64,000 nt of DNA, from assembly GCA_965112155.1 (NCBI GenBank), contig OZ218112.1; one strand, written 5' to 3'. Positions 5,633 through 64,000 of the stretch are shown piece by piece. Position 1 is the first letter of the stretch, and every line of letters starts with the position of its first letter. The position numbers and the translations under genes are program-made. The notes below the pieces were generated by a model. The model searched no databases. It worked only from the letters and a program-made list of their open reading frames with translations, and was not told where the DNA came from. Origin of the DNA: Podarcis liolepis (Eukaryota).

Positions 5633-25106
<19,474 letters not shown>

Positions 25107-28836: not shown

Positions 28837-47831
<18,995 letters not shown>

Positions 47832-47957
47832 CTGAAGGGAGTGGGAGGAGGGCACAAAAAGAAAATAGTAAGTGAGGTTTCTGCCTTTTCTCTCTCCAAG
47901 ACTGAGGATTTTAATTCATATCAAGGGAATTATAATAAAGAGGGGGGATATACTGAC

Positions 47958-48432
47958 TAGCACTGGGCAATATTATCAATATATCACCCAGGACCAGTAT
48001 GGGGAGGGGGGAGAGACTGCAATGACAGCTTCACTCAGTGGTATATCGCTGGTGAAACTGCCACAGCTCTTGAGCCCCCTGCCTCCAGTGCCTGGCCAAG
48101 GAGCCCCGGGTTCCCTGCCAGCTGTGTGTGAGTGGAGCGGGGGGGGGGCTCATAGCTGGCTCCCCTGCCCCCCAGCAAAGCCTGGCCAAGGAGCCCCAAG
48201 TCCTCTGCTGGTTGAGTGCAAGCGGTGGAGGACTCGGGGCTCCCCCAGCTGAGCAGCAGGCTGGGCCAGCTGTATCGGCCACAGCCCACAAGGCGTGAAG
48301 GGGAAGCTCCCAAGGATGAGAGCTACGGCAGTTTCACCCAGCACCTTGTTGGCTGGGGCCAATGCAGTTTTTTACCGCGATGTTTGGCTGCGATACACCG
48401 TGATGTTGAAAACTCAGCATCACCCAGCCATA
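47958..48432. mobile_element. hAT-like MITE with GC-rich internal repeats
   Basis: Perfect 8-bp TSD ATACTGAC (47950-47957, 48433-48440); imperfect TIR TAGCACTGGGCAAT / ATCACCCAGCCATA; internal repeat GCCTGGCCAAGGAGCCCC. Confidence 0.8.
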
Positions 48433-49499
48433 ATACTGACAAGTCCACCCTGACATTCAGCACCAAATAAATCCCAAATTCTTTAAACTAAGCCGAGTGT
48501 GTGTGTGATCTCCTAATCTTTGTGTAACATTTCACACAGCTTGAAGGGATGGAGAATGAAATGGTAATGAAAAGTGATGGAAAGTTCTCTCTGACCACAA
48601 CAGCAAGAAAACTGTCTTGTAATTGAGGCAAGAATCTGTGTAAATTACTAATCCCATTTATTAACATGAACTGCTAATTTCATTATCTGATATTGGTCAC
48701 ACAGATTTCCGAAACCCTCAAAGATAGTCTTTTTAATTACAGTCACCAATTGCAGCTGTGACACTACCCAGCTGAAGGAAAATCAGCAAAAGATTTGTGT
48801 ATTTTAGAAAGGACTGTGAGGAACCTTAGCAACAACTCAGAAAAGTTATAATAATGAAAAGAAAGGCTTCAGATTGTCACAGCAGCAATAATCTACCATT
48901 AACTGGGGGCATGTGATCATTGTCTACAAAAGGAGGGATTTATTAAAATTCTGTCTGTGAACAATAGATAACCACAAAGTACATGCATACATAAGATGGA
49001 AGAATCACCCATCATGTCTTTGTGAGGTTCAAAAAACCAAAACCCAGTCAAAGCAATTTATGTAATTTCCAGCAAAACCAACAAAAAGAGAGCCAGCATG
49101 GTGTAGTGATCAGAGAATGGGATTGGTACCTACAAGACCAGGGTCCCAGTCCCAACTCTGAGTGACTTGGCCAATTTCTGCTTTCAGCCTAACTTGCCTC
49201 ATGCGGTTGTCATGAGGATAAAATGGGGAGTGTGTGTATGCTAAGAACCATGAATGCCACATTAAACTCCTTGAAGAAAATGAAAAAGATATATATGTAA
49301 AAGTAAGATTTAGCTAGGTAACTCATGTTCACTGTTTTTCTAGTTTAAATAAAAAATAAGATTTTATTAAGATTAATGTTAAAATAGATTAGTGTTATCT
49401 TCAATGAAATTCACAAAATAACCAATCAACCCACAGCTGGCTATGAATTTATTTTTGGTTTCAAATAAGAGCATTGCTGGTGACAACAAGGACCTGATA

Positions 49500-49728
49500 C
49501 AGTGGTACCTCAAGATACGAACGGGATCTGTTCCGGAGCCCCGTTTGCATCTAGAGGTAAACATATCTATCGACGGCGTGCCTGTGCACGCGCGCGTTGC
49601 TTTTCGCCGCTTCTGTGCATGCGCAAGTGGCGAAACCCGGAAGTAACGCGCTCCGTTACTTCCGGGTTGCCGCAGAGCGCAACTTGAACTCGCTCAACTT
49701 GAAGCAAATTTAACCCGAGGTATGACTG
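49500..49728. mobile_element. Tc1/mariner-pogo-type MITE, subfamily A
   Basis: TA|CAGTGGTACCTC ... GAGGTATGACTG|TA; internal 15-bp perfect hairpin at 49634-49668. Confidence 0.85.
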
Positions 49729-50098
49729 TAGGTTATTTGTTAATGGCAGTATGTCAAACCCTTGCTAAACTACTTCTAAATAAACTGGTATTTAATTTCT
49801 AATAAATACACTTATAATTGCAGCCTTTAGTATTATTAATCTTAAATGTCAGGGTTGAACTAGAGTCCTTGAGCCATGCAGTTCACATGCTTTGTCGTTA
49901 GACTATAGATTCTTCCTACTGGAGGAGAGAGGATAGGAAATGCTATGAAGGAAAAATAATGCAAATGGTTGAAAATGCTTCCTCCCCTTAAAAAAGCTCA
50001 GTTGAAGGCTACATCGTGCTACATTTCTCACTGGCCCTTTCTTCCAAGAATGGGGATTTGAACCCTGGTCCTCCTAGCCTCAGGTTAACATTCTAAGC

Positions 50099-50569
50099 CA
50101 TGGGTAGGCAAACTAAGGTTCACGGGTCGGATTAGGCCCAATTGTCTTTGGATCCAGCCTGTGGATGGTCTGGGAATCACCGTGTGGATCACCAGCGCAC
50201 GTGCATTCTTTCCCTCTCCCTCCCTCTCCCTCCCACAGCAGCAGCGGCGGCGCCTCCTCCCTCCCTCCTCCTGGCTTCTCCTCACCCTGCCTAGAGGAGG
50301 AAGGGGGCTGGGCTTTGTTGGTGCCAGCAGCAGCAGCACTCGAGTGGCTGCCATTATAAGCAGCCCCTCTCTGGAGCCCTTTCGCGCGCCGCTCATCGTC
50401 CCTCCGCCGTTGCCGCCAGCCCCTGCTGCTCGCAAGACACAGGTAAGCAGCTACTGGGGCTCGTGGTGCTCTTGCATCTCCCCCCCCCAAAAAAAAATAT
50501 AGTCCGGCCCCCCACAAGGTCTGAGAGACAGTGGACCGTCCCCCTGCAGGAAAAGTTTGCTGACCCCTG
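50099..50569. mobile_element. hAT/Charlie-type MITE, same family as 31905-32500
   Basis: TIR CATGGGTAGGCAAACT / AGTTTGCTGACCCCTG; TSD TTCTAAGC / CCCTAAGC. Confidence 0.85.
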
Positions 50570-51768
50570 CCCTAAGCACTATCCCATCACACTGGCTATG
50601 CTAATAGATGCTAGGCAGTAACATTTTGCAACCCAGGAGTTATCTTTCCCAGAAACTTTACTCAGCCCTTTGCAAATACAGAATTGCAAAGGCCCAGGGA
50701 ACTTATGCACTACAAACAAGGCCTGAACCTGGAGCATGTTCCAATTTGTACTTTTTTTTAGTACAAGCCGCAGCAGTTGTGCAACATTCCCAGCTTGCCT
50801 AATTGTTCCTCTTTAGAAACCAGCTGATAATTGCATAGACTATTTCCTTCAGCGCTAAAACTGTTCTAAAGCCTCATGGAATTTTCCACTTCTAACTCTT
50901 CATCCCCAGCTGTACCCCACCCCAAGGACTAGATGCTACCAGAAAAAGGCAAGGGTACTGCTGCAAGAGGAGAATCAGGATGCTTGTAAAAAAATCACCT
51001 CTCAAAGATAAAGAAACCAGCAGGGATTTTTCTTTTCAAGTTTACAAGGAAACATGTGTCAGTTTCCCAGATGTTTAGAAATAATGTAGGTTTTTCCAAA
51101 ACTAGATATACTTTTAGAATCTCCCACTTTAGAAATCTGTTTAAAGACTGTTAGGAGCTGTATGCAAACATCATCTGAGTTGAAATAAAAAAGGCAAACA
51201 TAACCAAATTCAGTAATCCAGCATTTAGCAAGGACTTGTTTCCTTAACCATTACATAAACCAGCAAAAACGTAACATTATGTGTCAGTGATGCTCTTTGC
51301 TATTCAATACACTATGAGAGATAAAAGGGAAGCCAGCCATTCTAGGAGAAGACCCCCTGAACGCAATAGACCTAAGTACCTTGATTTCAATAGGCCTCAT
51401 CTGAGTATGACTTAATAGTGCAAACATCATAGGGTTGTCCTCTTTTTCAGGTCTGGTTGCAACATGAGCTTTTTCCTGCACAGGTTCTCTTTTTCAGGAT
51501 TACAATTTCTGTCCAGGCAGATTTTTAAAATTTGGCAAAATGTCCTGGTTTTTTTTGTTTGGTTTTTTGTTTACACTAATCCAAGATTTTTTACAAAAGA
51601 TAAATACAATTTTTAAAGCCTCGTGTATCACGCTCCCATTTCTCACTGTTTTTCATAAATGGAATATACATGTTAAACAGTTTAATAAATTGTTCTGTGC
51701 ACACTTATGTTCACAAAGGTGTATGTGGCAAGTGAGAGAGAAATATGTATTATTATTATTATTATAAC

Positions 51769-51973
51769 AAAATTCCTTCCAGTAGCACCTTAAAGACCAA
51801 CTAAGTTAGTTCTTGGTATGAGCTTTCGTGTGCATGCACACTTCTTCAGATACCAGAAGAAGTGTGCATGCACACGAAAGCTCATACCAAGAACTAACTT
51901 AGTTGGTCTTTAAGGTGCTACTGGAAGGAATTTTTTTATTTTGACTATGGCAGACCAACACGGCTACCTATCT
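51769..51973. mobile_element. Penelope-like retroelement terminal remnant forming a perfect 79-bp inverted repeat
   Basis: Arms 51769-51847 and 51856-51934 are exact reverse complements around an 8-nt loop; contains a PLE-type minimal hammerhead; tail gcagaccaacacggctacct is shared with 18958-18980 and 60718-60740. Confidence 0.8.
51814..51855 (-). ncRNA. Minimal type I hammerhead ribozyme motif (Penelope-type)
   Basis: The - strand reads UGGUAU CUGAAGA A GUGUGCAUGCACAC GAAA GC UC AUACCA: stem I UGGUAU/AUACCA, CUGANGA and GAAA core, palindromic stem II, minimal palindromic stem III, and an NUH cleavage triplet CUC. Confidence 0.75.
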
Positions 51974-53946
51974 ATTATTATGATTATGATTATGATTATT
52001 ATTATTAAAGTTAAGAACATTGCTACTAACAATATATCTATCACAGCTTCTATAGCTGTAAGAGCTCTGTAGTTAAAAGTAGAAGTTGGCAAATGTGTCC
52101 TCTTTTTTTGCTCTTCAAAATATGGCAACCCTAAAACATCATGATAGTTGATGTCACATGTTCCATGACAAAAAAATACTTTTTTTAGTGGCAAGGAACT
52201 CTGAACAAAACAATACGAAGTGATAGAATTCTGAAAACAATAAAAAATCCTGCACTCACTGTCTAAATTAGCAGCACTTGTACTGAAGAGTTACTATCTA
52301 TACTGTCACTTTGAAAATCCTCCATAAGAACATAAGCAGAACCCTACTGGACCAGAACAAGGATCCATCCAGCCCACCACCCTGTTCTCACAGCGGCCAA
52401 CCACAGGCCCATGGGAAGCCTACAAACATAACTTGACCACAACATTACTCTTCTCTCCTGCAGTTCTCAGCAACTGGCATTCAGCGGCATGCTGCCTCCA
52501 TGGAAACTAATGCAGCAGGCAGTTTGTACATGGCCAGAAGCAATGTTAGCAGGAGACCTGCCTGCACTTCCCCATTCCCGCGTTTAGCAGGACCATTCTT
52601 TTTGTGCTCCCATTGTTTGAGACAAAATAGCAGGGAAAGTGCCCTCAATTATTCCAGCTCCCCATGGCATTTTCAACTGTGTGAACTCAAGCCAATGATC
52701 CCCAGCAGCCAAGAGTGAAAGCGAACAAACATCTTCGTAACTTTCAGGATTAACATTCAGGGGTTCATCATTCTGTATCAATCCTTAAGCCTAGCAAGAA
52801 TCATGTATCAAAATATTCTTGGTGAGAAGAAGCCACGGTGCTTCTCATTGGAAAAGAACCCCCCCCCCCCAATTTGTCATTCCCCTCAGCCTCCAGCAAG
52901 AATACTGTTCCCCACAGACTCATCCACAAGAGAACACTTCCCAAAATGGACAATGTTTTGGGGATTCTAAATTTGTCCTGGTTCATCAGTGTCCACTGGA
53001 TGATACCAGATTGTGATTTTTTTAAGCTTGATGGGGCTGGATCTCAGAGCTTGTCAATATATGAGACCTTTATTTGTAGTTTTGCAACTGAGCATATTTT
53101 TAAAAATTACACAGATGAAAGTTGTCAACTAAAGCAGCTAAGTTAAAGAAGATTCTCCTAAGGGTAGAGGTGAGTTTGCACAATTAAAAGTCAAAACAAG
53201 AAGTTCATAACTCCACAGCCCAATTTTGCCTTTCAATTTGCATTTTGATCCATCATGACATTCTAAGGATCTCTTAAGAACCATAATTGTAGCAGGACAG
53301 TTATTCTTAACTTTGTACTTACAGTACAAGCTATTCTATGTTATTTATTTTGGGGTCGCAGAGAGGCCTGAAAGGCAGCTCCCTAGGGAAGATTAAAATA
53401 TTCATTTCAGGAATGTTATTTAAGTAGGATAGAAAACTAGAGATGGAAAATTGCCTATAAACATAGATCTCCAGAGAACACATGAACCCACTAGAACTGC
53501 CTTCAAGAAGCCATAAACTCTCAAGCTCCATTCCCCTTCTGCAATGTGGGGAGGATACTGACTTAACTTGATCTTACAGCTTGCAAGGAGGTCTGTGAAG
53601 CACTTTGAAGCCTTTCAAGTGCAAGATGGTAAACGCTATAAGTAATCATCAATATGCCTTTAGAACCATATTAAGACTTTCAAAAAATCAATTCATACAT
53701 TTTATGATGTCAGTTGAACCCTCAACTTGAAGCAAATCCTAGCTACTTGAAAGCTGTTTTATGCCCATCAGCATGCAGAGATATTAAAATAATACTACAA
53801 AATTTAGAATAAATTTAACTGTGGATAATGTGTGTTGCCTATAAAGGAAAGTCCTCTTATCAACAAACACTAAGGGAAGTTTGAAAGCAACAAGGAAGCA
53901 CAACCCATATTCTTTTTTCTACCTCACCCTCCAAAGTATGGGATTA

Positions 53947-54180
53947 CAGTGGTACTTCAGATTAAGTACTTAATTCGTTCCAGAGGTCCATTCTTAACCT
54001 GAAACTGTTCTTAACCTGAAGCACCACTTTAGCTAATGGGGCCTCCTCCTGCTGCCGGAGCCCGATTTCTGTTCTTATCCTGAAGCAAAGTTCTTAACCT
54101 GAAGCACTATTTCTGGCTTAGTGGAGTGTGTAACCTGAAGCATATGTAACCTGAAGCATATGTAATCCAAGGTACCACTG
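53947..54180. mobile_element. Tc1/mariner-pogo-type MITE, subfamily B
   Basis: TA|CAGTGGTACTTC ... AAGGTACCACTG|TA. Confidence 0.85.
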
Positions 54181-54230
54181 TATGATACTTTTGACAGACA
54201 GCAAAATAAAAATTGGAGGATTATCTCTAT

Positions 54231-54425
54231 GTTGTGGACTCTTCTTCATTGGAGGTTTTTAAGCAGAAGCTGGCTGGCCATCTGTCATGGATGCTTGGCA
54301 GGGGGTTGGACTCGATGGCCCTTGTGGTCTCTTCCAACTCTATGATTCTATGATTCTACTTTAATTGAGGTTCCTGTGTTGCAGGCAATTGGACTAGAAG
54401 ACCCCTGGGTTCCCTAACTCTACAA
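54231..54425 (+). mobile_element. Old CR1 3' end with a young CR1 3' tip (54293-54358) inserted in it
   Basis: Inner piece is the reverse complement of ~41142-41201 with TATGATTC repeats; flanks rejoin as a diverged CR1 3' end. Confidence 0.7.
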
Positions 54426-55505
54426 CCTTTTTCAGCCCAAGGACCACATTCCTGTGTAGACAACTTTCCAGGGATGCCAGTGGTGAGCAGGGTGAGAAGC
54501 AGAATTGCAACAGATGTGACTCTTACCTTTTTATGGTAGGTGACATTGCAGCCATGCCAGAGGTTTCTACACCCCCCCCCCATTCAACCACTACCTCAAG
54601 GTCACAGTTTTAAAATACATTCCATACGGGCAACAGCACCCATGGAGTGTGTGGAACTGGGCTGGTGAGAGGAGGTGTATCTTGGGAGGCACCCCAGGAC
54701 CTGGAGGGTCACATTTGGCCCCCAGGATTGAGGTTACCCATAACTGGTCTATAGTTCTCTCCATTACAATAAAAAACACAGCAGTTATCTGTAAGCTAGT
54801 GAAAGGATCATATCCACCATGTTCAGGGAAGCTCTAGCAAAACAAATATTTACAGAGAGTTTAAGGATATCTGTCATGTCAGTATCTTCACTGGAATGTT
54901 CTTGAGATGTGACACTGCCCAATAACCTGGTGATTCTTGTTTGAGATTTCACACCCCTGTCATGAGTTGATATTCTGTTGTACGCTTGTAACACTCCCAT
55001 ATTCTACCTTAATGTACTGAGAAATCTTAGCTTGCCCAGTAGAAGAATTCTTTTGTTTAATAGGTTTTTTTCTTACAGTAATACCCGCATTGGAGTCATG
55101 AATTCAGTCGTGCAAAATATGGAATACAAACTACAGTAGGTAGCCTCAAAGAAAGAGTAGACAAGGAACTATTACCACACAGGTGGAGAGATGAAACATG
55201 AAGCAGTATGACTTGCAACAAGGAAATCTCTTTAACCTTTGTATGTTATATTTCACTGTTTTACTTCCTTCATTAGTTTGGGTCAGGAATACTTTTCAAG
55301 ATGACGAAATCTAAATCTACATGAAGATATTTACCAAACATTAGTGCACTGAATAATGTATCCACCTGTTCTGTAAACCAGCAAAGCCTTAGCATTTCCC
55401 AAATGCAATGCAATACACTTATCTAGGCTGGTATCTCATGGCTATGAACAACCAAGGGTTACTCTGGTAGCAATATACATTTGTGAATATTGTGAAGCAA
55501 CTAGA

Positions 55506-58500
55506 CAACAACAACAACAACAACAACAATTTATTATTTATACCCCGCCCATCTGGCTGAGTTTCCCCAGCCACTCTGGGCGGCTCCCAATCAGTGTTAA
55601 AAACAGTACAGCGTTACATATTAAAAACTTCCCTGAACAGGGCTGCCTTAAGATGTCTTCTGAATGTCAGGTAATTATTTATCTTTTTGACATCTGATGG
55701 GAGGGCGTTCCACACGGTGGGCGCCACTACCGAGAAGGCCCTCTGCCTGGTTCCCTGTAGCCTCACTTCTCGCACTGAGGGAACCGCCAGAAGGCCCTCG
55801 GCGCTGGATCTCAGTGTCCGGGCTGAACGATGGGGATGGAGACGCTCCTTCAGGTATACAGGACCGATGCCGTTTAGGGCTTTAAAGGTCAGCACCAACA
55901 CTTTGAATCGTGCTCGGAAACGTACTGGGAGCCAATGCAGATCTCTCAGAACCGGTGTTATGTGGTCCCGGTGGCCACTCCCAGTCACCAGTCTAGCTGC
56001 CGCATTCTGGATTAATTGCAGTTTCTGGGTCACCTTCAAAGGTAGCCCCACGTAGAGCGCGTTGCAGTAGTCCAAGCGTGAGATAACCAGAGCATGCACC
56101 ACTCTGGGGAGACAGTTCGCAGGCAGGTAGGGTCTTAGCCTGTGTACCAGGTGGAGCTGGTAGACAGCTGCCCTGGACACAGAGTTAATCTGCGCCTCCA
56201 TGGACAGCTGTGAGTCCAAAATGACTCCCAGGCTGCGCACCTGGTCCTTCAGGGGCACAGTTACCCCATTCAAGACCAGGGAATCCCCCACACCAACCCG
56301 CTCCCTGTCCGCCAAAAACAGTACTTCTGTCTTGTCAGGATTCAACCTCAATCTGTTAGCCGCCATCCATCCTCCAACCGCCTCCAGGCACTCACACAGG
56401 ACCTTCACCGCCTTCACTGGTTCTGATTTAAAGGAGAGGTAGAGCTGGGTGTCATCTGCATACTGATGAACACCCAGTCCAAACCCCCTGATGATCTCTC
56501 CCAGCGGCTTCATATAGATATTAAAAAGCATGGGGGAGAGGACAGAACCCTGAGGCACCCCACAAGTGAGAGCCCAGGGGTCTGAACACTCATCCCCCAC
56601 CACCACTTTCTGGACACGGCCCAGGAGGAAGGAGGTGAACCACTTTATGACAGTGCCCCCAGCTCCCAGCCCCTCTAGACGGTCCAGGAGGATGTTATGG
56701 TCGATGGTGTCAAAGGCCGCTGAGAGATCCAGCAGAACTAGGAAACAGCTCTCACCTTTGTCCCTAGCCCACCGGAGATCATCAACCAGCGCGACCAAGG
56801 CAGTTTCAGTCCCATGGTGAGGCCTGAATCCTGATTGGAAGGGATCCAAATGGTCCGTTTCCTCCAGGCGTGCTTGGGATTGTTCAGCAACCACCCGCTC
56901 AATCACCTTGCCCAAGAATGGCAGATTTGAGACTGGGCGATAGTTGGCCAAATTGGCCGGGTCTAAAGATGTTTTTTTAAGAAGCGGTTTAATGACCGCC
57001 TCTTTCAGCGGGTCTGGGAAGGCTCCCTCACAGAGGGAAGCATTCACCACCCCGCAGAGCCCATCACCCAGCCCTTCCCGGCTCACTTTTATCAGCCAGG
57101 ATGGGCAAGGATCAAGGAGACAGGTGGTCGGTTTCACTTGTCCAAGCAGCCTGTCCACATCCTCGGAGGTAACAGATTGGAATTGATCCCATGTAACAGG
57201 ACCAGACAGAACTCTAGCACTCTCCCGCCCTGGCCCTGCTCCCACGGTGGAGTCTACCTCCTTCTGAATCTGAGCAATTTTATCTGCAAAAAACTTTGCA
57301 AAAGCATTGCAGGAGATCTTGGGGTCCCTACCAGGTCCCGGTGGTACAGGTGGTTCCGATAGATTGCAAACCACCTGAAAAGGTCTCTTGCTGCTGTTTT
57401 CTGCAGATGCAATGGAGGCGGCGAAGAAGGCCCTCTTCGCCGTCGCCATTGCCACTTGGTAGGCTCGACGTTGAGCTCTAGCCCGTGTCCGGTCTGATTC
57501 AGAATGAGTTTTCCACCACCGGCGCTCTAGCCGTCTCAACGATTGTTTCATCACCCTCAGCTCCGGGGAAAACCAAGGGACTGTCCGGGCTCCAAGCAAT
57601 CAGAGAGGGCGCTTCGGAGCCAGACAGTCAATAGCCCTGGTTAACTCCGCATTCCAGTGTGCCACCAGGGAATCAGCTGAAAGGCCATCAACTTGGGATA
57701 AAGCATCCCCTACCACTCTCTGGAAGCCAATTGGATCCATTAAGTGGCGGGGGCGGACCATCCGAATCGGTCCCACCTCCCTGCAGAGGGGCAGGGTTGC
57801 GGAGAAGTCCAGTTGCACCAGAAGTGATCTGACCATGGCACTTCTTTTGTTTCGCTTTTAGTTAGTGTCAGATCACCAACATCCATAGAGGTGAACACCA
57901 AGTCTAAGGCATGTCCACGGCTATGAGTTGGGCCAAACTTATTCAGGGACAGCCCCATGGAGGCCATGCTTTCCATGAAGTCCCGAGCGGCCCCTTGTAA
58001 GGTCGTGTCGGCATGGATGTTAAAATCCCCCAGGACAACCAAGCTAGGTGTCTCCAGGAACATATCCGCCACGACCTGAAGCAGCTCGGGCAGGGAATCC
58101 TTGGTGCAGCAGGGAGGTCGGTACACCAGTAGGAATCCTGTACTGCCCCTATCGCCCAACTTCCAGAACATGCACTCAGAAAACTGGGTCTTCCCAATAG
58201 GACGCCTGGTGCAGACTAATGACTTCCTAAAAATCACTGCAACCCCCCCTCCCTGCCCACATGACCTGGGTTGCTGTGCGTAAGAGAAACCTGGTGGGCA
58301 AGCAGCGGCAAGGACAGGCCCATCTGCTTCATCCAACCAGGTCTCTGTCACACATGCCAGGTCAAATCCTCCATCCACAATCAGGCCGTGGGTGGCAGTG
58401 GTTTTATTCATCATTGACCTGGCATTGCACAGCAACACTTTCAGGTCATGTGGGTATCCCTTGCTGATTACTGTATCCTTCCGGTCAGGACCAGACCTGG

Positions 58501-59118
58501 AGGCAGGGATAGTCCTCAAACAAGGACTAAACCTGCCTCCTCGGTAATGACATGGTCTGGTCTTAGCGTAACTCCTCCTCCTGCCCGTGATCACTGAGAT
58601 CGGGTGTCCCAATACATCCCCCCCTGTGGAACCTGCCCCACCCAATCTATTGGCTGAGGCCCACTCCCAGGCAGCCATGACCCTTCCCCTTAGAAAGCAA
58701 AATACAAACTATATAATAATTTAACAGAATAATAATAATAATACAAAACAAAGCAAGAAACAATAACGCTGACTAAATGCTTATCCCACCCCAAGCAAAA
58801 ATAAAATAATGAAATATAATATTATAAAAAACAACCACCACCATTTAAGGTGCTGCAAATTAAAAGCAATTAAAACATTTAAAACCATTTTGTCCATTGC
58901 TGCCGGTAGCTGCTCAGGCCTCTAAACTGTAGTGGTAGTGCAGGCCCTGCCCCCTAGGCCGGATGGAGTTGGCAGGAGAGGGAGCGGTCTTCCCAGCACT
59001 CACACAAGCAGCAACAGCAGCCGTGTCCCGGAGGCCTCTCTCAGGCCTCTTATGCTGTGGCGGTGGGTGCAGGCCCCACCCCCTAGGCCAGATGGTGTTG
59101 GCAGAAAAGATGGAGTTG
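55506..59118 (-). mobile_element. L2 LINE, young, complete ORF2 region with two lesions
   Basis: APE domain (CNARS, TETWL, VYRPP, GDFN, LDLVF, SDH) in 57740..58678 and RT (QSGFR, LDLSAAFD, PQGSVLSP, QYADD) in 55614..57599; (GTT)n tail; ~127-bp tandem unit at the 5' end. Confidence 0.93.
55614..58678 (-). pseudogene. L2 ORF2 (endonuclease-reverse transcriptase), ~1020 codons, disrupted
   Basis: One 1-nt frameshift after SDHF (~57820) and one in-frame TGA at 57600-57602 (probably from CGA); ORFs 57600..57836 and 55614..57599 are contiguous and in frame. Confidence 0.9.
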
Positions 59119-59423
59119 ACAATGATCCAACACTGCTAGAAAAGCTGGACTACCCATAAGACATGGGTCCAACGCCTAACAGAAAATAATGCCAAACTCA
59201 GTGCTGCAAGTGGCACTACTCTAGTGACAGATGCCTCATTTGCAAAAGGGGAAGAGCCCCTTCTATGCTTCAGAAGGCCAATAGTTACTTTTAATCCTGG
59301 CACCTACCCATATAGAAAGTAGATTTAAAATGCTAAAAGACTGGAGGTATATGCTCTTTTACTGACTACATGCCATAGTAGGAATCAACCATCTGTGAGG
59401 TACTAAACCCTAATAGTTTAAGG

Positions 59424-59604
59424 CAGTGGTTCCCAATTATCTAACTACTGAGTACCCCATTTTTCAAAAGCATAGCCAAGGGCTGCCTGTTTTTGAAAAT
59501 TTTGATATGTATAGTAGTTTTTGTTATGTGAATGGTGCCACAGACCCCCTAGATGTGTTACTCTGACCCCTTGAGGTCTGCAGACCACCAACTGGGAACC
59601 ACTG
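59424..59604. mobile_element. hAT MITE
   Basis: TIR CAGTGGTTCCCA / TGGGAACCACTG; TSD GTTTAAGG / GTTTAAAA. Confidence 0.75.
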
Positions 59605-61689
59605 GTTTAAAAAATAATGTAATTTGCCTTCGCTTGCAATTCTACAAGGAGTAACGGAATAGTCCTGAAAAGTGTTTTGCACTTAAAACTACAGCTGTCG
59701 TTTTCTGTGAAAAGCAGAAGTTTGGCATGTACATAAACTCTTACATCAGCCCTCAAAACAGGAAGGTTGTTAGCAATATCTGTCTGACACTGAGCAGTCT
59801 ATGCAAAATTAATTTGTGTTCTCAAGTCTAACAAGTTAGCAGGTCTCAACATCACAGAAACATCAATCAAAAGTTAACATGCCGAGCTGCCTTCCAGAGT
59901 GGGTTGTCCGAGGCTGCAAATTAAGAACAATGTTTCTACCAGTCTATATCTTTGTGAACACCCACTTCAGTCAACACTGTTTGATCCTCCCTGCTATAAT
60001 GCTAAATAACCTAAAACTCAAGAGGGAAAACAGTGCCTTTTCTCCTGACAAAGCAGAGTTCAAAGCTTGATCAAGATGACAACAGAGCAGGAATATCAAG
60101 AAGCACATAATTATTAACATGAAGCACTTTACTTTTATAAAAAGTACAACAAATCATTACCCTTCATTACAACAAAGCACATAGTCTGCAAGTTTAAATG
60201 AATATTGATTTCTTCCCCAATTAACAGTTTTCAAGGGCTCTCTACTCTGCTCCCTATTGTCTTTGGAGCCAATACTGCAACCCTGACTACATCTGTGTTG
60301 AAAAGTGTCCCAATAATTTTAAAGGGATTTAAACCCAACTAGGTATTCTCAGGATTACAGCATTAGCCCTCTCACTAGTGTCTGATTGTATGCTAAAAAT
60401 CCTTTTCTTAGTTCTATTTCTTTCCAAACTAGTTAAAATGTTCCAAGTTATTTTTGTTATCTTCAGAACTATAATTAATCTTTCTACAGTTACGTATTCC
60501 ACATAAACCCATCAGAAGTGGCGATCTTTATTTACATCTTATCTGGAGCATGTCGTCTTCAAAAAGGTGGGGGTTTTTTGGGGGGTGTCTTTTGTAAACA
60601 AGTTTCCCTCAGACTCCACAAACTTCTGGAGTTATGAGCAAGAAAGAATGGCTAATTTCACTCTGAAGGTTTTGTATTATTGCACCACTTTCTCTAACTG
60701 ACAATAATTTGACTGCGGCAGACCAACACAGCTACCTACCTGTAACTAGTGCGCATTTGTTACACTTCATATACTTAATACTTGCTGCTTTTACTAAAGG
60801 AGTAAGTCTGCCTTCATTTTTTGACTATACTCTTTAAATATTTCTATTGTGACAATTGGAGTGCCCTCTGAAAACAGCTTTAAAAATAGTATTCTACTGA
60901 CCTGTTCTTCAGTATCAATATTAGCCTTCAAATTCCTATCGGCCAAAACAGGAGTTCTGTGTGCACATTTTTGAGCTATAAACTCCAGTTAAACCTGAAG
61001 AACCATCACAGACTAAGAGCAAGCTGTGAATTCCATCCCATCACATGCAACACAACTGGAGTGTTGGCCAGTTTCCAAGCACAGCCTTTGCATAGATATG
61101 CCAACAAACATTATTTCAATCTGACAGATATCGCTAAAGGCTGAAGGCAAGTTCTAATGTTTCATCCAGGAAAAGTAGTAGTTGTACATTGGTTTTCGAA
61201 CAGCTTAGTTCTCAAATGTTTTGGCTCCCAAATGCCACAAACCCTGAGTGTTCCAGTTTGCAAACTATTTTTGGAAGCCAAACGTCTGATGGGGCTTTCG
61301 ATTGGCTGCAGGAGCTTCCTGCAGCCAATCGGAAGCTGCACTTTGGTTTCTCAAACCTTTTGGAAGTCAAACAGACTTCCGGAACGGATTCCGTTCGACT
61401 TTCAAGGGATGAATGTAATGTGAACCAAGGGCTGTGAAGCTGCTACATTTTCTGGGGATGCAAAGTCCCAACACAACTCCCTCTTCAATTGAACAAGTAT
61501 TCCTGTACTCCTTCAAACCCATCCAGAATGGCATCAATAAGGTTGGAATCTCAGTATCCCCTCATGGGTAGGTAGTTGCCATGTTTACCTGTTCAGGAAG
61601 TTACCTGTTCAGGATGGGGCTGTACTGGCTCTGAAGGAACAAGTGCATTGCTTGGAGTACTCCTGAAAACACATTTGTAGCTAGAAGTC

Positions 61690-62260
61690 CAAGTGTCCTC
61701 TGTGGACAGGAGTGCCTTTTATGAGCTTCATCTCGTTCATCTGGAACTACAGCTGTTCCTGAACAGGGAAAGCCTGACCACTGCAGTTCACCAAGTGTTG
61801 GAAACCTCAAGGCAAGATTACTGTAATGTGCACTATGTGGGGCTGCCCCTGGGTCTGGGTCAGAAACTCCAGCTGGTGCAGAATGTGGCACTCAGACTGC
61901 TGAAAGGAGCTCCTGGTTGAGAACACATGGAGACATTGTTAAAACAGGAGCACTAGCTGCCCATTTACTACTGGGCTGGGGTCATGGTTCTTGTATGAAT
62001 TTACAAAGCCTGAACAACTTAGTTGTAGAGTTCCTCAAGAATTACCTGAACCCTTACATCCCAGATCGATCACTGAGATCACCTGCAGGAGCATCACTGG
62101 TCATTCCCTGAGTTGGTAAGGCTCATTTGATAACAAGAGTCTTTATTTTCATTAGCTCAGTCCTGTGAATACTCTGCCAATGGAAATTCAGCAGACACCT
62201 TCTGTGCCATATTTTTAAAATGTCTACTACAAACTTTTCTACCCTGCCAGGCCTAGCTAT
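61690..62260 (+). mobile_element. Old L2 RT 3' fragment
   Basis: Degenerate translation SSVDRSAFYELHLVH...SRQDYCNVHYVGLPL...KLQLVQN aligns by eye to the C-terminus of ORF 55614..57599. Confidence 0.8.
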
Positions 62261-62910
62261 ACAGGCAATTAAGAACACATTCTTCTACAATGGTTAATTG
62301 ATGTCTGTTTTTAACTTTGTTATGGTTTTTATTGTACAATTTTATGTTTTATTCCTGTAACCCACTTCTATATATTTTTATAGCATAGCAGTGTATAAAT
62401 ATTTTTATTTTTTTTAAAAAAGAGTACCCCTGATGGGATAAAATGGCAGATAGAAAGGCACATCTACCCACCCTCCAAATTTTGTAAAAGGAAAACTTAT
62501 ATATTATATTAGTGAACAAGCCACTTCCAGGGCTTCTGATTGAACTTTCAGTTCTCCACAGCCAGAAGCCACATTTATGCTTAAATGAGCCTATTTTTAT
62601 TGTCAATCAGCATCTCATTGTCAAAATACTAAAGTAGTTCAGAATTCAGTTAATAACAGTAGGTATGTCAGATCCAAATCACAGACAAACTACATTACGC
62701 TACCCAAGACAACTCAGCAGGCTGGAATGATTTAAAATTAGATACAAATTTTCAGTATAAATATGCCAGTAACCTCTACATATGTAAGGAACGCAGCTTC
62801 CTTGGAAGGGAACTAAGTCAAACACACACAAAAACTCCTGTGGCTCACCACAGAGCATAGAAAAAAATCAAAGCAAATACACAATGGAAAGATCAAAGTA
62901 CATGCATATA

Positions 62911-63150
62911 CAGTAGTACCTCGGGATGTGAACGGGATCCGTTCCGGAGCCCTGTTCACATCCTGAATAGAACGTAAGACGCGACCACGCAGGTTGCATT
63001 TTGCCGCTTCCATGCATGCGCGTGACATCATTTTGAGCGTCTGCGCATGCGGCGAAACCTGGAAGTAATGCACTCCGTTACCTCCGGGTTGTCGTGGAGC
63101 GTAACTTGAAAACGCTCAACCTGAAGCACATTCAACCCGAGGTATGACTG
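62911..63150. mobile_element. Tc1/mariner-pogo-type MITE, subfamily A
   Basis: TA|CAGTAGTACCTC ... GAGGTATGACTG|TA. Confidence 0.85.
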
Positions 63151-64000
63151 TAGTCCTGTTCACATACTGTTTATGTGCACACACTATACTGTTGTAACCA
63201 GTCTCAACAATCTTTGGAAACTTGAGTACTTTGAGAGGCAAGGGAACCTCTTCAGAAAACTCTTAACACCATCAAACTTACAGTTCCCATGAATCTCTGA
63301 AGGAAGTCATGACGGTCTTAGGGTAACCTGATTAAAATTTAATACCACCTTGTTTAGAGTTCTGGACAAGCTAAGCAGGAATTATTCTATTTCAAGCTCC
63401 TTCAAACAAGTCCAACATTATGTAGTAAAAGTTGCAAGTACAGGTGTCCAAATATTTCCCATGGTCCTACCTTAAATATACCTATGAGAGAACACTACAT
63501 TCAAGTCCAGATCTGTTTACACTTCCTGAAATCAAGCTACACACACTTCCATGCTACATCCATCCTTGAAGAAACATTTATTTTGTGTTATGCACCTTCA
63601 TTTTAAAAAATTCATCCAAGAACTCTTTATTCTCTGCAGCTATATAAAACCAAAACAGAGAATACTATTAACTCTATGCATATCTAGGTTAAGCTACCAG
63701 CTATGAAGTAAAAGGAAGTGTGCTATTACATAAAGTTTATTGCCAACTCTACAAAGTTTTTCCTGGAATTCAGCCCTGCCCAAGAATAATCACAAAATCA
63801 AAGGGAGAAAATGGAGGAATATATTTTTAGGTTTGAAAAATGAAAATTCACTTCCAATTTGCTTGCAGCTACTCATGTATGGTGAGAATTGCCTCCATTC
63901 AAGGAGGCTAATGATGAAAAATGGGTTCTTCCCATAACCCCGTCAGAAGATCGAATCAGGATTCAATGTGACCATAACAGATTGAAGAGTTGAGCCCAAA

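Follow-up and report, generated by a model that had tools for sequence, protein, structure and literature searches.

An STK26-intron palindrome in Podarcis liolepis is an ordinary stub of a Penelope-like retrotransposon family whose insertions may record how such elements integrate

We analysed a stretch of 64,000 nucleotides of Podarcis liolepis DNA (contig OZ218112.1 of assembly GCA_965112155.1; hereafter the window) that contains a long palindrome with a hammerhead ribozyme motif. Judged by its sequence, this palindrome is a stub of a young, high-copy Penelope-like (PLE) retrotransposon with Neptune-type domains. The stub of 210 bp was probably made in one step at insertion, when the first 100 to 130 RNA bases were copied onto both target ends, and the motif is predicted to be trapped in the resulting hairpin. 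For the host gene, STK26, the insertion is likely an ordinary scar and no gene switch. The architecture has already been published, and the STK26-locus stub is a real, ordinary example of it; what is still of interest is how the family as a whole documents the mechanism of integration.

Insertion site and structure

By sequence comparison, the best match of the exon at 39053-39238 is STK26/MST4 (69 bits versus 56 for STK24). STK26 exons run along the minus strand from 47.8 to 29.1 kb while the first coding exon lies outside the window, at window-equivalent position 72,304. The insertion is therefore intronic and the hammerhead strand, which is the minus strand, is sense, as the initial annotation had placed it; the next acceptor is approximately 3.9 kb further on. 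The antisense arm is indeed transcribed first in the STK26 pre-mRNA, as had also been stated.

The palindrome is formed by two perfect reverse-complement arms of 79 bp each (51769-51847 and 51856-51934) around an 8-nt loop, AGATACCA, exactly as first described, and the arms reach 84 bp if one mismatch is allowed. The unit that had been described, 51769-51934, stands as a palindrome but not as the extent of the insertion. The right arm runs on beyond 51934 and ends at 51973 in a tail of 30-40 bp, so that the insertion comprises approximately 210 bp with a tail on one arm and a target duplication (Table 1). The insertion site is an ATT microsatellite, where the exact duplication is 9 bp.

Table 1. 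Features of the insertion and its surroundings, in window coordinates
Feature	Position	Strand	Remarks
Whole insertion: two 5'-truncated pLTR arms, head to head	51764..51973	.	~210 bp; left end uncertain by 5 bp
Short arm, element +4 to ~+88, stopping in U-rich run, without tail	51769..51853	-	compared with natural full-length copies L140 and L143
Short arm reaching ~+92, if 51764-51768 is element-derived with one mismatch	51764..51853	-	
Two junction bases (T, G) foreign to native upstream sequence	51854..51855	-	
Tailed arm, element +10 to ~+127	51856..51973	+	without C3/U4 of the core and without the stem I 5' strand
Tail	51942..51973	+	ATG at 51947 opens the first nine codons of the element ORF (MADQHGYLS)
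Target duplication, left copy	51757..51765	+	exactly 9 bp, blurred by the ATT microsatellite; median of 12 bp in the family
Target duplication, right copy	51973..51981	+	
Minimal type I hammerhead motif	51814..51855	-	native stem I 51853-51850 with 51819-51816; predicted cut 51820/51819; features per PMC4209133
Part of STK26 intron hosting the insertion	47832..64000	-	between first coding exon (outside window) and exon starting near 47831

A hammerhead motif within a hairpin

The minus-strand motif consists, in order, of stem I, CUGAAGA, an extra A, a self-complementary stem II of 7 bp, GAAA, GC and UC, which confirms in sequence the minimal hammerhead and predicted cut of the initial annotation. 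A generic core expression has a single match across the 64 kb of the window, and that match is on the minus strand. On the plus strand the sequence is CAGAAGA and the 5' strand of stem I is missing; the mirror core is thus broken and one strand alone carries the motif, as had been proposed. The reported 6-bp stem I is a different case: six pairs are present at the locus, but they are not all native to the element. Upstream of the core, the element itself reads TTTCAGTGTAT, and therefore the native stem I has 4 bp, with the two outer pairs at the locus coming from junction bases 51855-51854.

By sequence, the motif has the features of minimal PLE hammerheads as set out in the accessible text of PMC4209133: the core, an extra nucleotide at 9/10.1, G10.1-C11.1, palindromic 15.2-16.2, a long helix II (7 bp) and a short helix I (4 bp in its native form). 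The same source describes minimal hammerheads that lie 100-700 bp from each other on opposite strands, and mentions reptile motifs. Unlike those published motifs, the STK26-locus copy has a helix I that is 2 bp longer by an accident of the junction, and it sits in its own antisense.

Folding of the minus strand of 51700-52000, as the initial annotation had suggested, gave a strong hairpin of -166.4 kcal/mol (z = -23.8), an energy that 0 of 100 shuffles matched. The Rfam comparison turned out negative, with no hammerhead covariance-model match in 51000-52700 at E values up to 10. All 22 matches in that scan were below threshold and most were microRNA hairpins; a microRNA identity was rejected, as the scores are far below gathering cut-offs and reflect any long hairpin.

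It had been suggested that the hairpin silences the ribozyme and, further, that the two folds could switch the locus between cleaving its own STK26 intron and serving as a double-stranded substrate for ADAR or Dicer. Silencing is supported as a prediction. Imposing the hammerhead fold on the minus-strand transcript costs 54 kcal/mol compared to the hairpin, and the pairing probability of stem II and stem I is 0 at 12 of 12 lengths of the growing transcript. The ribozyme motif is real, and it is predicted to be locked in the hairpin. The same two results count against a switch, despite an intact core in sense orientation inside an intron and despite the fact that a 79-bp hairpin would be a plausible ADAR substrate: with the hairpin favoured by approximately 54 kcal/mol, there is no plausible switch. 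Furthermore, the minimal hammerheads studied so far did not cleave as monomers and had low activity as dimers (accessible text of PMC4209133), the Anolis hammerhead is described as cleaving only with its protein (part of PMC11167929), the same geometry is common genome-wide, and there is no sign of special conservation of the STK26-intron palindrome. We consider a locus-specific switch extremely improbable. In the STK26 pre-mRNA the palindrome would, from the folding model, be a passive 79-bp hairpin, and the consequence for STK26 is most likely none.

The family of origin

All 40 scored candidates (of 498) match nearly all of a 204-bp query at 94-100%. Genome-wide, the 41-nt ribozyme core has 9,757 exact copies and the 25-nt 3' motif has 15,893, while head-to-head junctions of the same geometry, with a loop of up to 13 nt, number 604. 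Many different loop sequences occur among the 50 of these 604 junctions that were listed, and since the loops vary, the junctions appear to be remade each time.

The parent element consists of 3,008-bp tandem units with an intact ORF of 910 amino acids. This ORF contains RVT_1 (E=1e-11) plus a GIY-YIG domain (E=2e-5) at the C terminus, both above Pfam cut-offs, with a CX4CXXC motif directly before the GIY-YIG region. Together with the family copies, it bears out the Penelope-like origin that had been proposed. In the accessible part of PMC8557442, a CX2-5CXXC motif between RT and EN is a mark of Neptune and Nematis elements; our element resembles the Neptune clade of that paper in its order of RT and GIY-YIG and in the motif just before the endonuclease, an assignment made by domain content. 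These sequences suggest recent activity of the family. In L139, L140, L142 and L143 there are full-length copies that are nearly identical and have uninterrupted ORFs, some in tandem and some head to head at kilobase scale, and partial tandems form pLTRs in L139, L140 and L143. A composite was seen at L141:1365-4292, where the 5' part of the ORF precedes an RT-end/GIY-YIG part that belongs to another Penelope-like family.

Arms of 70 unselected insertions

We mapped insertions on a natural full-length copy, with +1 set at the A of an Inr-like TCAGT, 30 bases past a TATA box. The sample comprised all 70 insertions behind the first 100 matches to the 25-nt 3' motif. L044 duplicates L043 and L052 duplicates L051, so that both were left out; L034, L036, L037 and L045 fall outside the 70-insertion sample.

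We found that at least 37 of the 70 insertions are head-to-head pairs, which is a lower bound because a pair escapes the script if the anchor is absent from its second arm. A short arm that ends in the U-rich run is joined to a tailed arm in 36 of these 37 pairs. Target duplications, with a median of 12 bp, flank 84 of 85 mixed pairs drawn from three locus sets (selected sets included). The two arms share source variants with no exceptions at the two sites tested (4/0/0/75 and 2/0/0/55 tables).

The initial annotation had taken the lack of divergence between the arms as a sign of very recent insertion or ongoing conversion. This is not supported at the level of the family. Arms are identical in 19 of 37 pairs, and over all 37 a hand sum gives differences at 26 of 2,490 compared sites; approximately 44% of the time, therefore, 79 bp would be expected to be perfect, which makes perfection routine. 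The core is intact on one strand in 23 pairs, on both in 10 and on neither in 4, in a count taken across entire loci, in which nearby copies may also have been scored. Thus neither the palindrome, with 604 of its geometry genome-wide, nor an intact core on exactly one strand makes the locus special; the STK26-intron locus is typical of its family.

Origin of the head-to-head arms

We propose that these stubs would arise as follows. The pLTR promoter would start a capped RNA at +1, +2 or +4, just upstream of the hammerhead, and the GIY-YIG domain would make two staggered nicks approximately 12 bp apart. Priming from one nick would take place in the U-rich site (+90 to +100) and priming from the other in the tail end (+126 to +140), with a single RNA, or several RNAs of one source copy, serving both; the template would be mostly uncleaved RNA. 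Each cDNA would extend as far as the 5' end of the RNA, where a C would often be added opposite the cap, and the 3' ends of the cDNAs would then be joined in a process involving trimming, microhomology or some filler bases. The Anolis element, in vitro, extends both strands from uncleaved RNA with two RT start sites that bound the tail (accessible part of PMC11167929).

Sharing of variants between arms would also follow if a tail-primed cDNA reached the RNA 5' end, folded back and copied itself up to the U-rich run to yield the second arm. Self-priming of this kind has been proposed for PLE palindromes (in the accessible text of PMC3846280), and our junctions do favour self-complementary spots, with AGCT in 11 of 43 and an AACTAA/TTAGTT repeat dominating the control window. 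The two routes differ in which arm may be complete, given that a copy cannot contain sequence that its template lacks. Of the 28 short pairs, 9 combine a complete short arm with a trimmed tailed arm, as at the STK26 locus; a fold-back copy of the short cDNA could not have gained the tail that the trimmed arm carries. Both arms reach the start in 9 more, and some pairs have an extra G on both arms (L151, L162, L182), which also argues against fold-back. The reverse pattern, a complete tailed arm with a trimmed short arm, occurs in 5 of the 28 and would fit fold-back as well. The 15 versus 9 bias among the short pairs is not significant (p=0.31). We prefer dual priming because the complete arm is the short one in 9 of 28 pairs and at the STK26 locus, and regard fold-back self-priming as unlikely.

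Two further explanations were considered. First, the palindrome could be mobile as a unit, a mini-element of autonomous appearance akin to a MITE or retrozyme. Such an element would leave 204-bp copies that are nearly identical and have duplications, and retrozymes have been described as non-autonomous PLE derivatives (bioRxiv 10.64898/2026.07.22.740005, accessible part). However, loops and arm ends vary and grade continuously to kilobase arms, so that there is no fixed monomer; no tandem arrays of the unit were seen, and the outer ends coincide with the parent's RT start zones. A mini-element is therefore, in our judgement, very unlikely. Second, the contigs of 4 runs over 51350-52400 cover the unique flanks, and none among those listed spans the site, as might be expected of an assembly or fold-back library artefact. 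The arms are, however, asymmetric with element-specific ends and come with a target duplication, and hundreds of like structures each have different junctions; we give an artefact hardly any credence.

5' ends, the extra G and the cleavage site

Dual priming would bring cDNAs to the RNA start. We found that the 5' ends of 44 of 107 arms lie within -4..+7, a cluster 30 bases past the TATA box, while 0 of 107 lie at the cleavage site, +38. A second accumulation of ends, at -94, results from an indel relative to the reference and was disregarded. A non-native base precedes +4 in 2,288 copies genome-wide and is G in 60 of the first 100 (hand count); for comparison, a non-native base precedes +6 in 550 copies and is G in 17 of 100. 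RT is able to copy the RNA cap, adding a base to the cDNA end. We infer that the extra G and the pile of 5' ends reflect cDNAs that end at the capped RNA start, and that the junction G at 51854-51855 is an instance of the family-wide excess base before +4, that is, a copy of the cap.

Other sources may contribute to the excess. Part of it may be target microhomology, and the extra G lies inside the target duplication in several solo copies. In some inverted pairs the extra G could be templated by the partner arm. Fold-back at stem I predicts TG and then TTG; TG was seen in 10 of 28, TTG in 4 of 28 and AG in 12 of 28, so this source is not dominant, and it may apply at the STK26 locus. A shared spliced exon upstream of the extra-G copies was rejected, as upstream sequences are heterogeneous in 46 extra-G arms from 40 loci. 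TTTCAG before +3 does resemble a 3' splice site, which counts against a TATA/Inr start; Drosophila Penelope has such a feature (accessible text of PMC4209133).

Cleaved RNA was rejected as the main template, given the absence of arms at +38 among the 107 and the fact that a non-C at +37 is mostly a variant. Indeed, 91 of the first 100 of 711 non-C copies have T at this cleavage-site base (hand count), often in both arms of a pair, and this common T is therefore a sequence variant. It suggests that a source copy with an altered ribozyme site was still mobile. Among 43 junctions near the cleavage site, 22 have an arm that ends exactly at +38 (hand count), 9 of them with a 2-base overlap; the control window has 118 junctions with clusters of its own. 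This is at most a hint of a small cleaved-RNA class, and of cleavage at +38 in vivo.

Taken as a family, the stubs seem, by a modest balance of probability, to record PLE integration itself: a single RNA, capped and for the most part uncleaved, would be copied from the two staggered nicks, each strand using one RT start site (36 of 37), and a minor junction class at the hammerhead cut that perhaps reflects cleavage in the germ line.

Some copies show other irregularities. In L092:976-1247 the stretch from +6 to +40 is missing and the hammerhead is gone across the base of stem I, as if RT had skipped the stem-loop. In L067, L071, L073 and L075 (near 1530-1600 of the oriented loci), arms enter the ORF for 40-60 bases, after which a second copy begins at its +3/+4, in many cases preceded by an additional G; we read these as tandem template jumps to the RNA start.

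Relation to described elements

The family has the features of EN+ PLEs: an ORF with RT and GIY-YIG, pLTR tandems, an inverted 5'-truncated copy, a 30-40-bp tail at one end and a short duplication. An inverted truncated pLTR, one-sided tail, duplication and TATA/Inr have been described for PLEs in the accessible parts of PMC3846280, PMC8557442 and PMC8969392. Like the EN+ PLE insertions of the first two papers, ours have head-to-head arms, a one-end tail that encodes the ORF start, TATA plus Inr, and a duplication. Unlike them, the STK26-locus insertion comprises two arm stubs only, without an ORF body, and the median duplication of the Podarcis family is 12 bp compared to 8-10 bp in the rotifer examples given there (PMC3846280, PMC8557442). 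In contrast to the published EN+ PLE examples, thousands of copies permit statistics on ends.

Poseidon of Anolis carolinensis is similar in vitro in its two RT start zones that bound the tail, extension of both strands and uncleaved template, and shares an ATT-rich target with the STK26 locus (accessible part of PMC11167929). Poseidon belongs to another clade, and its ORF starts inside the hammerhead whereas the Podarcis ORF starts approximately 100 nt past the start site. The strict pairing of a short with a tailed arm, one start site per strand, that is seen in the Podarcis family is not reported for Poseidon in the accessible part of that paper, a point against our proposed route. A literature search, whose coverage excluded most subscription journals, Repbase and supplements, found no mention for PLEs of a cap-G signature or of arms being strictly paired.

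Twin priming by L1 likewise produces inverted insertions with a duplication and junction microhomology. L1 arms cover different parts of the RNA, whereas the arms of the Podarcis stubs cover the same 5' stretch.

Near-identical intact copies together with thousands of minimal insertion products make the origin of PLE inverted repeats and tails testable. For the existing in vitro system, the predictions are strict pairing of short and tailed arms, a 12-bp stagger and an RNA start with a cap signature. In addition, several thousand long, perfect hairpins of one sequence, many of them surely intronic, could be a bulk source of double-stranded RNA.

Other repeats in the window

Minus-strand reading frames at 14238-14954 and 41309-41530 resemble what we take to be the RT end of CR1-type LINEs. 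An older palindromic stub of a related subfamily, approximately 83-85% identical and with a truncated centre, lies at 18998-19117, and a diverged solo tail fragment of the same Penelope-like family (86% over 37 bp) lies at 60705-60741. A short, repeat-rich, MITE-like element with 20-bp inverted ends occupies 53945-54182; related sequence is the insertion target in L003, L039 and L041.
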